Origin: a virus
Length of the DNA stretch: 64,000 nt
Direction: 5' to 3' (one strand)
IMG/VR virus record: IMGVR_UViG_3300037067_024426
The position numbers and the translations under genes were made by a program. Position 1 is the stretch's first letter. Every line of letters starts with the position of its first letter. Shown one piece after another: positions 18,203 to 18,523 of this stretch. The notes under the pieces are model-generated. The model did no database searches. It worked only from the letters and a program-made list of their open reading frames with translations, and was not told the DNA's origin.

Positions 18203-18523
18203 TCAAGAAAACGCTAATTTTAAGTTACTACAGATTCTTCTTGCTTCCGGTTCTATGGCTATTGCAGTTAAACTTTCGCCAAGATCAGGTTCTCGAAATT
18301 CAGAAATTCGAAGACCATTGAATCTAGCTTTAAACATGAGATCCTTAAGTTCATTCTCATTTCTTACCTGAAGAAGAGCAAGGTGATTTGAACAATCAAA
18401 CCACCTATCAGCTACATCAGCATTTTCTTGGCAAAAATTGATCGCTGCATGAACCGCCTGAACTGCTTGATCACCAGGTGGAAGATCAGATCGAACCACC
18501 ACATAAAGTTTAGGCGGTTTCAT
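18203..18523 (-). CDS. Peptidyl-tRNA hydrolase, PTH2 family (archaeal/eukaryotic type)
   Basis: KLYVVVRSDLPPGDQAVQAVHAA compares with the PTH2 core [25 protein letters not shown]. The C-terminus ..ISEFREPDLGESLTAIAIEP..NLKL compares with ..[23 protein letters not shown]..HLKL. Its start overlaps the ECF sigma stop. Confidence 0.8.
   Translation of the reverse strand: MKPPKLYVVVRSDLPPGDQAVQAVHAAINFCQENADVADRWFDCSNHLALLQVRNENELKDLMFKARFNGLRISEFREPDLGESLTAIAIEPEARRICSNLKLAFS

Follow-up and report, generated by a model that had tools for sequence, protein, structure and literature searches.

The virus record IMGVR_UViG_3300037067_024426 of IMG/VR, a stretch of 64,000 nucleotides referred to here as the window, encodes a 106-residue protein with the fold of the archaeal and eukaryotic peptidyl-tRNA hydrolases (PTH2). 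Its gene is followed after 34 nt, on the same strand, by a transfer RNA (tRNA) with the amber suppressor anticodon CUA. By alignment, the protein is not a canonical Pth2 but a member of a large separate clade, named FREPD here after an invariant motif of its own, and genes of this clade are co-inherited with nonsense suppressor tRNAs across very different phages. We put at about one half the probability that the FREPD protein is a specialised PTH2-fold paralogue that forms a unit with the adjacent suppressor tRNA and, in this lineage, with a small basic protein encoded upstream. Judged from its sequence and surroundings, it would most likely hydrolyse tRNA esters in the exclusive service of the suppressor tRNA encoded beside it. 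The components of this putative module in the window are as follows.

18203..18523, minus strand: PTH2-fold protein of the FREPD clade, 106 aa, ATG start (Pfam PF01981, AlphaFold2, Foldseek)
18094..18168, minus strand: tRNA with anticodon CUA, an amber suppressor (ARAGORN; Rfam RF00005, 52.4 bits; cloverleaf minimum free energy -28.4 kcal/mol)
19002..19349, minus strand: small basic helical-hairpin protein, 115 aa, ending in -EAA (Jackhmmer, alignment, AlphaFold2)

A PTH2 fold with a remodelled active site

The 106-residue protein scores well above the gathering cut-off of the Pfam family PF01981 (PTH2), with 43.7 bits where 23 are required (E=3.6e-11) and residues 5-98 aligned to positions 2-105 of the 115 in the profile. 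It also matches phrog_1866, a family of unknown function (4e-15). An AlphaFold2 model built on 30 homologues has a mean pLDDT of 96.4 and the alpha/beta fold of PTH2, with a four-stranded sheet and flanking helices. When the model was compared with the PDB by Foldseek, the top matches were Pth2 structures only (2zv3, 3erj, 1q7s, 1wn2 and 1xty; probability 1.0, TM 0.78-0.82), and the first match beyond them was the PTH2-like protein Atu0240 (2gax). Membership of the PTH2 superfamily, proposed in an earlier note made from the letters alone, is thus confirmed by the profile hidden Markov model (HMM) and by the fold. The same note had pointed out that bacteria normally use Pth1; the oddness of a PTH2 in this setting is already published for jumbo phages (PMC7824862) and for cluster C mycobacteriophages (PMC5966550). 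The nearest public relatives of the protein come from uncultured huge-phage records (LR756500 and LR756501/3, 462-735 kb), and a search for near-identical DNA with positions 14000..24000 gave no match among cultured phages.

The active site was compared in an alignment of 46 FREPD members, 45 canonical-type phage PTH2 proteins and three solved Pth2 sequences, and in a profile-to-PDB alignment. Residues R11, D13, Q22, H25, A26, W41, E56, L59 and T86 are common to the FREPD clade and the canonical proteins. Within the clade, Q22, H25, A26, F76, E78, P79, D80, T86 and A87 are invariant, and the motif F76-R77-E78-P79-D80 ... T86-A87, invariant and peculiar to the clade, gives it its name. The lysine of the canonical GK motif, present in 100% of the canonical sequences, is replaced by variable residues in the clade (Y, D, P, Q and others; D18 in the window protein), and the loop at this motif is two residues shorter. 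The invariant aspartate of the canonical DxGxT motif has become an invariant glutamate (E78), which is a conservative change, the glycine has become a second invariant acid (D80), and the threonine is variable (G82 in the window protein). Furthermore, the five-residue 'EF..G' loop that follows DxGxT is deleted in the clade, and the canonical GP motif is changed to E-P (E in 59%, P in 70%). In S. solfataricus Pth2 the GK lysine is K18 and the DxGxT aspartate is D86, both of which we take to be catalytic residues. Mutation of the equivalent aspartate in yeast, D174N, impairs Pth2 activity, according to the preprint 10.1101/2024.11.20.624519, which cites Ishii et al. 2006 for this.

The motifs on which the earlier note had relied fare unevenly in this comparison. 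The N-terminal motif is present (VVVRSDLPPGDQAVQAVHAA), whereas the quoted C-terminal motif, AGxTxIxPGSxTVLAIGP, is missing; the protein has FREPDLGESLTAIAIEP there, a different invariant motif with a five-residue deletion. The canonical catalytic residues, whose loss the note had named as a refutation, are likewise kept only in part, with Asp18 in place of the GK lysine, Glu78 in place of the DxGxT aspartate, and the threonine and GP lost.

Despite its close structural likeness to archaeal and eukaryotic Pth2 (PF01981; 2zv3, 3erj, 1xty, 1q7s), to which it is about 25-32% identical, the FREPD protein differs in its two shortened loops and in its charge. The isoelectric point (pI) of the window protein is 5.6 and the clade median 6.3, against 9.3 for the basic M. 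jannaschii Pth2. An exhaustive HMMER search of 1.84 billion representatives recovered 4,331 clusters of the family at E<=0.001 and 1,909 at E<=1e-10. Selection on an enzyme would fit the kept canonical residues, together with E78 and D80, two acids invariant in the clade that stand where Pth2 has its catalytic aspartate. One match of the family profile, the highly repetitive 2,457-aa protein P0111, reaches 144 bits through 24 short stretches and is almost certainly a low-complexity or repeat artefact and no homologue.

PTH2 proteins of jumbo phages have been described before and discussed as archaeo-eukaryotic-type enzymes for ribosome rescue (Iyer et al. 2021, PMC7824862), and ORF188 of Klebsiella phage RaK2 has been called Pth2 (PMC3622015). 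The canonical jumbo-phage proteins are likewise phage-encoded, belong to the same superfamily and come from large genomes with many genes for tRNAs and translation. However, they keep KGK..AQ..HA and DxGxT..GP, show no suppressor linkage (see below) and represent a distinct paralogue. Both types can occur together: among the loci collected below (numbered with L), a canonical-type PTH2 lies a few kb from the FREPD-type gene in L082, L103 and L107, and both types are also present in L372 and L373. The presence of both paralogues in one locus argues that the job of the FREPD protein is distinct from general Pth2 activity. In addition to the annotated ORF188, RaK2 contains a second, very divergent PTH2-like open reading frame (ORF), ORF216 (L490 2977..3300; PF01981 27 bits, no FREPD motif), located between tRNA-Leu(TAA) and an unannotated tRNA-Gly(TCC).

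Linkage to nonsense suppressor tRNAs and the genetic code

The suppressor tRNA of the window has the anticodon loop CUCUAAA and the discriminator base A, and its CCA end is not encoded. The earlier note had placed a suppressor tRNA next to the PTH2 gene, and ARAGORN and Rfam agree with it on this point. The suppressor is the sole tRNA in the window outside the following array, from which it is 16.5 kb distant.

53..1603, minus strand: array of seven tRNAs (Thr-CGT, Asn, Asp, Gln-CTG, Lys-CTT, Lys-TTT, Tyr)

Rfam at its gathering thresholds returned only tRNAs from the window, with no ribozyme resembling that of hepatitis delta virus, no theta ribozyme and no other RNA beside the suppressor, and a scan for terminator-like sites gave none between the stop codon of the PTH2-like gene and the tRNA.

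The same arrangement is found well beyond close relatives of the window. A CTA tRNA is also present beside the homologue in L003 and L005, two distant relatives with no more than about 49% identity and with other neighbours. In IMG/VR, a degenerate DNA pattern for FREPD..TA.A, followed by confirmation with the family HMM, yielded 119 loci, 100 of which contain some tRNA. The nearest tRNA carries the anticodon CTA in 64 of the 119, TTA in five and TCA in one, and in eight further loci tRNAs left untyped by ARAGORN proved on inspection to be UCA or CUA suppressors. The nearest CTA tRNAs are on the strand of the gene in 69/69 cases, 37 of them within 300 nt and 55 within 1 kb. A scan of the GTDB genome collection gave 28 loci that pass the HMM, about 22 of which have a same-strand CTA tRNA beside the gene; many matches to the motif only, for example in Saccharibacteria metagenome-assembled genomes, were not PTH2-like. 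Together with cultured and uncultured phage records, these two sources make up 144 loci, which fall into 84 clusters at 70% protein identity. A same-strand suppressor lies within 5 kb of the gene in 60 of the 84 clusters and within 1 kb in 51, which is a lower bound since many locus stretches are incomplete.

Two controls indicate that the linkage is specific. The first is a set of 120 IMG/VR loci for which a generic tRNA D-arm served as seed. Their 571 tRNAs include three CTA, three TCA and no TTA, so that CTA makes up 0.5% of tRNAs there against 20% in FREPD loci. Only 3/120 of these control loci carry a CTA tRNA (Fisher p=2e-23 against the FREPD loci), and in the sole control locus with a PTH2-like ORF, L228, a TCA tRNA lies 190 nt away. 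Around canonical-type phage PTH2 genes, a CTA tRNA was found in 7/93 loci (p=2e-15). In two of these seven, L372 and L373, it adjoins the FREPD-type paralogue and not the canonical gene.

Cultured phages carry the pair as well. In cluster C mycobacteriophages, the presence of a PTH2-like gene within their tRNA arrays is on record (PMC5966550), and the 'peptidyl tRNA hydrolase' products of Bxz1 (gp154) and Myrna (gp84) belong to the FREPD clade, with 40-42% identity to the window protein. According to ARAGORN, the first tRNA after gp154 is CTA, and a same-strand CTA tRNA also follows gp84. The Bxz1 and Myrna genes differ from that of the window in standing at the edge of large tRNA arrays and in having no detectable small partner and no sigma-factor or vault-protein neighbour. 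Their published annotation is by name only, and the literature examined does not mention the suppressor link. In Acinetobacter phage ME3, 450 nt separate gp266 from a CTA tRNA upstream of it, and in LR756500 and LR756501 CTA tRNAs lie 0.8 and 2.1 kb downstream of the homologue. The public labels of Bxz1 gt155 (L248 4666..4738, 'tRNA-OTHER') and of Myrna gene 86 (L251 4469..4540, tRNA-Ser) hide suppressors.

The suppressor tRNAs have the features of functional decoders. Canonical anticodon loops prevail among 98 unique suppressors (CUCUAAA in 58, UUCUAAA in 14). PTH2-like genes beside CTA tRNAs end with TAG in only 5/82 cases, against 9/40 for PTH2-like genes without a suppressor in view and 17% of all ORFs in the loci (binomial p=0.003), and this avoidance of the cognate stop argues that the tRNAs truly decode UAG. 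By similarity the suppressors are a heterogeneous set that resembles Lys, Thr, Arg, Asn or Trp backbones and is not Gln-like, and the window tRNA comes nearest to Lys, Arg and Thr backbones. A mismatch at 31-39, which leaves a 4-bp anticodon stem and an apparent 8-nt loop, was seen in the suppressors that ARAGORN left untyped (L066, L008, L125, L035, L072, L049, L026 and L085), most of them UCA; tRNAs with 4-bp anticodon stems that read UGA are said to be the subject of a 2026 paper (PMC13092985).

The phages use the standard code, at least locally. ORFs cover 94.6% of the window under the standard code, compared with 95.5% when TAG is read as a sense codon, and TAG ends 13 of the 64 window ORFs. 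Across 88 related loci, the median gain from reading TAG as sense is +0.02, which is not above that for TGA or TAA. Recoding of TAG in the window and in the 88 loci was ruled out on this basis, the gain being non-specific.

These observations separate the FREPD module from the code-change module of recoded phages, which combines a suppressor tRNA with an aminoacyl-tRNA synthetase, together with a release factor (Borges et al., preprint 10.1101/2021.08.26.457843). The two are alike in that a phage suppressor tRNA is clustered with a translation-factor gene and encoded in standard code. However, the code-change module has a synthetase or release factor and no hydrolase is mentioned, whereas the FREPD module has a PTH2-like hydrolase instead; no aminoacyl-tRNA synthetase or release factor was found among the shared neighbour families or the scanned window ORFs. 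The absence of TAG recoding and the lack of tRNA-Gln-like suppressors are further differences.

Some window genes are of interest with respect to TAG read-through. A DnaJ-like gene at 30436..31536 on the plus strand (DnaJ, DnaJ_C, CXXCXGXG) stops at TAG and is directly followed in frame by a 160-aa ORF without a Pfam match (31537..32019, plus strand), such that read-through by the CTA tRNA would yield a 527-aa fusion. On the minus strand, a single TAG separates ORFs 8469..8816 and 8856..9260, which share a frame, and read-through would extend a vault-like gene at 15367..18027 by 10 codons. An AAA ATPase gene (21173..23404, minus strand) also has a TAG stop, read-through of which would add 70 codons; its product matches IetA in PADLOC (2e-13), a component of a known anti-plasmid/defence system.

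The phage PTH2 family and its presence in jumbo phages are already known. The distinct FREPD clade and the partner protein appear to be new, and so does the fact that this clade in particular is paired with nonsense suppressors. A link between PTH2-like genes and suppressor tRNAs was not found in the literature searched, whose coverage was incomplete, so that it may have been noticed earlier. The huge-phage survey mentions neither the PTH2-like gene nor the suppressor, the XacN1 and Atu_ph07 papers list both suppressor and hydrolase without connecting them, and the phiKp24 paper discusses the suppressor and not the hydrolase. The authors of the XacN1, phiKp24 and Atu_ph07 papers left the purpose of suppressor tRNAs in large phages that are not recoded unexplained. 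A protein family co-inherited with such tRNAs offers an experimental handle on that purpose. Members of the family come from phages of Mycobacterium and of Acinetobacter as well as from uncultured phages that reach 735 kb, and Bxz1, Myrna and ME3 are cultured, genetically tractable carriers of the pair. There is also a consequence for annotation, since the label 'peptidyl tRNA hydrolase' on hundreds of phage records merges two paralogues, one of which lacks residues considered catalytic. A homologue of the window protein is present in some 207 Mycobacterium phage records, most of them with this label.

The small basic partner and the proposed role of the module

When all ORFs within 4 kb of the PTH2-like genes were clustered, one recurrent neighbour family emerged besides the PTH2-like family itself, homologous to the 115-aa ORF 19002..19349 of the window. 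Release factors, synthetases, RtcB and similar proteins were sought as conserved neighbours, and only sporadic families were found (IF3, macro domain, HNH, NadA). Jackhmmer detected homologues of the small protein in 45/144 loci, in 44 of which its gene directly precedes the PTH2-like gene on the same strand, mostly with an overlap or a gap of no more than 33 nt. The protein is basic (pI 9.3) and is characterised by the motif R..[LH][LI]AY..LRG..Y..IE, with an invariant arginine and a near-invariant glutamate. Its AlphaFold2 model, based on a 5-sequence alignment, has an overall mean pLDDT of 76.6 and features a long helical hairpin (H2-30/H34-61) with pLDDT >90. Searches against Pfam and the PDB sequences gave no match, a fold search led to generic helical hairpins only, and a word-indexed protein search found only five close homologues.

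A scan of the top 150 representatives of the PTH2-like family (numbered with P) revealed that the partner is fused to the N-terminus of the PTH2-like domain in P0123, P0204, P0222, P0224, P0229 and P0232 (HMM, E 3e-18 to 4e-10). P0246 is a further such fusion by eye, and P0251 gives a weak partial match. These fusions are Rosetta-stone evidence that both proteins act together. By eye, many of the partners and of the fusion proteins (P0123, P0204, P0222, P0224, P0232, P0246, P0250 and P0144) end in two alanines (...EAA, ...KAA, ...TAA, ...VAA), which recall an ssrA-type C-terminal degradation signal. The 115-aa partner protein is 100% identical to the NCBI entry 'MAG: hypothetical protein WC708_01505 [Lentisphaeria bacterium]', from which it follows that the phage contig probably ended up in the bin of a Lentisphaeria genome, which may hint at the host.

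From the linkage, the fusions and the PTH2 fold, a mechanism may be proposed. The genes of the module would be co-transcribed, and in the window the three protein genes, with a sigma-factor gene among them, would be translationally coupled. The suppressor tRNA would be excised from the transcript, charged by a host synthetase and used to read UAG. The PTH2-like enzyme would then hydrolyse the ester at the 3' end of the suppressor tRNA, in its peptidyl-tRNA(Sup), N-blocked or aminoacyl form, which would keep the single-copy suppressor pool recycled and controlled while UAG remains a real stop. The basic partner could supply a tRNA-binding surface, or a form of regulation, that the unusually acidic enzyme lacks. 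We infer the enzymatic activity, the choice of the suppressor tRNA as substrate and the acyl form that would be cleaved. An enzyme of such specificity would be potentially useful for the control of engineered stop-codon suppression. The earlier note had suggested a role in translation or tRNA pools, including read-through events, which fits the clade-wide suppressor linkage; its further suggestion of a response to anti-phage attack on tRNAs is unsupported, as PADLOC gave no match for the PTH2-like protein, the partner or the sigma and vault-like proteins encoded nearby.

Several points weigh against a dedicated suppressor hydrolase. Adjacency speaks for co-inheritance and probable co-expression and not for an enzyme-substrate relation. 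About 30% of clusters have no suppressor in the stretch examined, many such stretches being incomplete, and true exceptions occur in L050, L056 and L107, where the gene lies in ordinary tRNA arrays, and in Xanthomonas phage Xoo-sp13, where no tRNA is present within 3 kb of the FREPD-type gene. With the GK lysine lost and the DxGxT and GP motifs remodelled, the sequence does not assure hydrolase activity, and the window protein scores far under the cut-offs of the NCBIfam Pth2 equivalogs (TIGR00283 arch_pth2, 31.0 against 82 bits; NF003314, 29.7 against 126 bits). Known Pth biology gives no reason for a suppressor-specific hydrolase, and no experimental reports on the FREPD clade were found in the literature searched. 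Lastly, Bxz1, Myrna and ME3 have no detectable small protein of this kind, which makes the partner accessory to a core pair of enzyme and tRNA.

A bolder formulation would have the small protein, the FREPD enzyme and the suppressor tRNA constitute a dedicated and widespread phage system of stop-codon reprogramming under the standard code. The enzyme would be suppressor-specific, acting either as a timing switch for read-through or, in a tRNA-based form of termination independent of host release factors, as the half that frees the peptide. We regard this formulation as tentative and, on balance, rather unlikely.

Among the alternatives, the protein may be a housekeeping Pth that recycles dropped-off peptidyl-tRNAs in general during infection, its gene travelling with tRNAs and the suppressor being incidental. 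This is the published reading for jumbo phages and for the cluster C tRNA arrays, and it agrees with the PF01981 membership, with the fold and with the three suppressor-free arrays just named. However, the neighbour in FREPD loci is specifically a suppressor, as the share of CTA among tRNAs attests, and in the window it adjoins the gene and is remote from the seven-tRNA array. Furthermore, the canonical-type phage PTH2 lacks the linkage and yet is found in the same loci as the FREPD type, and the active-site motifs of the latter are remodelled. A housekeeping function is therefore considered unlikely.

The dedicated enzyme could instead serve as a block on suppression, deacylating the charged suppressor and holding read-through off until a labile partner times the release of this block. 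The layout of a small upstream overlapping gene followed by an enzyme resembles a toxin-antitoxin pair, and many partners and fusions end in -AA. With TAG still the stop of about 17% of genes, unchecked suppression would be costly, and the window has in-frame ORFs right after TAG stops, as behind the DnaJ-like gene. The published idea of a code switch that times late genes in recoded phages provides a precedent. Nevertheless, there is no conserved or demonstrated target of read-through, Bxz1, Myrna and ME3 are without the partner, and the -AA ending was seen by eye only. The partner-enzyme fusions suit a simple antagonist model poorly. Neither protein has a match in PADLOC, or in Pfam beyond PTH2, and the context is that of phage genomes and not of defence islands. 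In addition, Pth2 is described as acting on N-blocked aminoacyl-tRNA and peptidyl-tRNA. Pth2 enzymes are not known to attack free aminoacyl-tRNA. On this balance, a role in timing read-through is quite unlikely.

A third alternative holds that the FREPD protein is a dead PTH2 fold, which would bind tRNA ends or proteins as a chaperone or shield for the suppressor, or would act as a toxin-like factor on host tRNAs. The loss of the GK lysine and the DxGxT threonine, the acidic surface and the lack of an equivalog-level score would all be expected of such a protein. We find this distinctly improbable, for the invariant E78/D80 and the kept Q22, H25 and T86 across 4,331 clusters resemble a conserved active site and not decay, and there is no PADLOC match to suggest a toxin. 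Highly improbable is a termination independent of release factors, in which the suppressor decodes the stop and takes over the nascent chain, and the PTH2-like enzyme frees that chain when host release factors are limiting or disabled. Peptide release from tRNA is the chemistry of the family, and the linkage to all three stop anticodons (CUA, UUA and UCA) points to stop-codon decoding as such and not to one tRNA identity. There is, however, no sign that PTH2-fold proteins act on ribosome-bound peptidyl-tRNA or that release factors are disabled by these phages; that the PTH2-like genes avoid their cognate stop suggests read-through and not clean termination, and no precedent was found in the literature searched. 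The preferred reading remains that of a paralogue coupled to its suppressor tRNA.

A different fusion of the FREPD-type domain was observed in gene 327 of Xoo-sp13 (L491 2461..3303), where it is preceded by a further domain of about 170 aa at the N-terminus, which carries the motif HDIGKP...H and lacks a Pfam match. The same domain is encoded as a separate gene beside the PTH2-like gene in L073 (10352..10933) and L088 (3935..4513). A possible identity for this domain is that of an HD-type phosphohydrolase with tRNA ends as its substrate.

Surroundings of the module in the window

The genes that flank the module in the window, together with a candidate promoter and a second sigma factor, are listed below.

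18520..19002, minus strand: sigma-70 factor of ECF type, 160 aa with the ATG at 19002 as start (Pfam Sigma70_r2, r4_2, ECF)
15367..18027, minus strand: major-vault-protein-like gene (MVP shoulder and Vault_3), 886 aa (Pfam)
19467..19495, minus strand: match to a sigma-70-like promoter (TTGACA-17-TATCTT, with a TG), located upstream of the gene for the small protein (consensus scan)
9504..10427, minus strand: second full-length sigma-70-type factor (regions 2 and 4)

The ECF sigma factor scores 66.5 bits with the NCBIfam sigma70-ECF model, against a cut-off of 42.9. Its gene sits between those of the small partner and the PTH2-like protein, with a TAATG junction upstream and an ATGA junction downstream. 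At the latter, the TGA stop of the sigma gene overlaps the ATG of the PTH2-like gene, in agreement with the translational coupling that the earlier note had read from this overlap. The vault-like gene is co-oriented, begins 66 nt past the suppressor tRNA and ends with TAG. That note had named both neighbours in its reading; they are confined to the near-identical relatives L001 and L002, outside the conserved unit, and the vault-like gene is missing from the neighbour families common across clusters. The promoter match at 19467..19495 could mark the start of an operon of small protein, sigma factor, PTH2-like protein and tRNA. It is weak, a consensus match only, from a scan that found two sites where 3.5 were expected by shuffling.

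The window looks like part of a huge phage, as it encodes a family A DNA polymerase, a DnaB-like helicase, DnaJ and the second sigma factor, and also very large proteins weakly similar to tail proteins. A few genes downstream of the module in L001, an ORF at 11228..11686 encodes a protein with RRM_1, a eukaryote-type RNA-recognition motif, which by synteny probably corresponds to 12827..13285 on the minus strand of the window. At the far end of the window, 57688..61674 on the minus strand encodes a 1,328-aa protein with ten matched stretches of collagen triple-helix repeats (340 bits), and positions 58001..60000 have 56% G+C, compared with about 40% elsewhere in the window.

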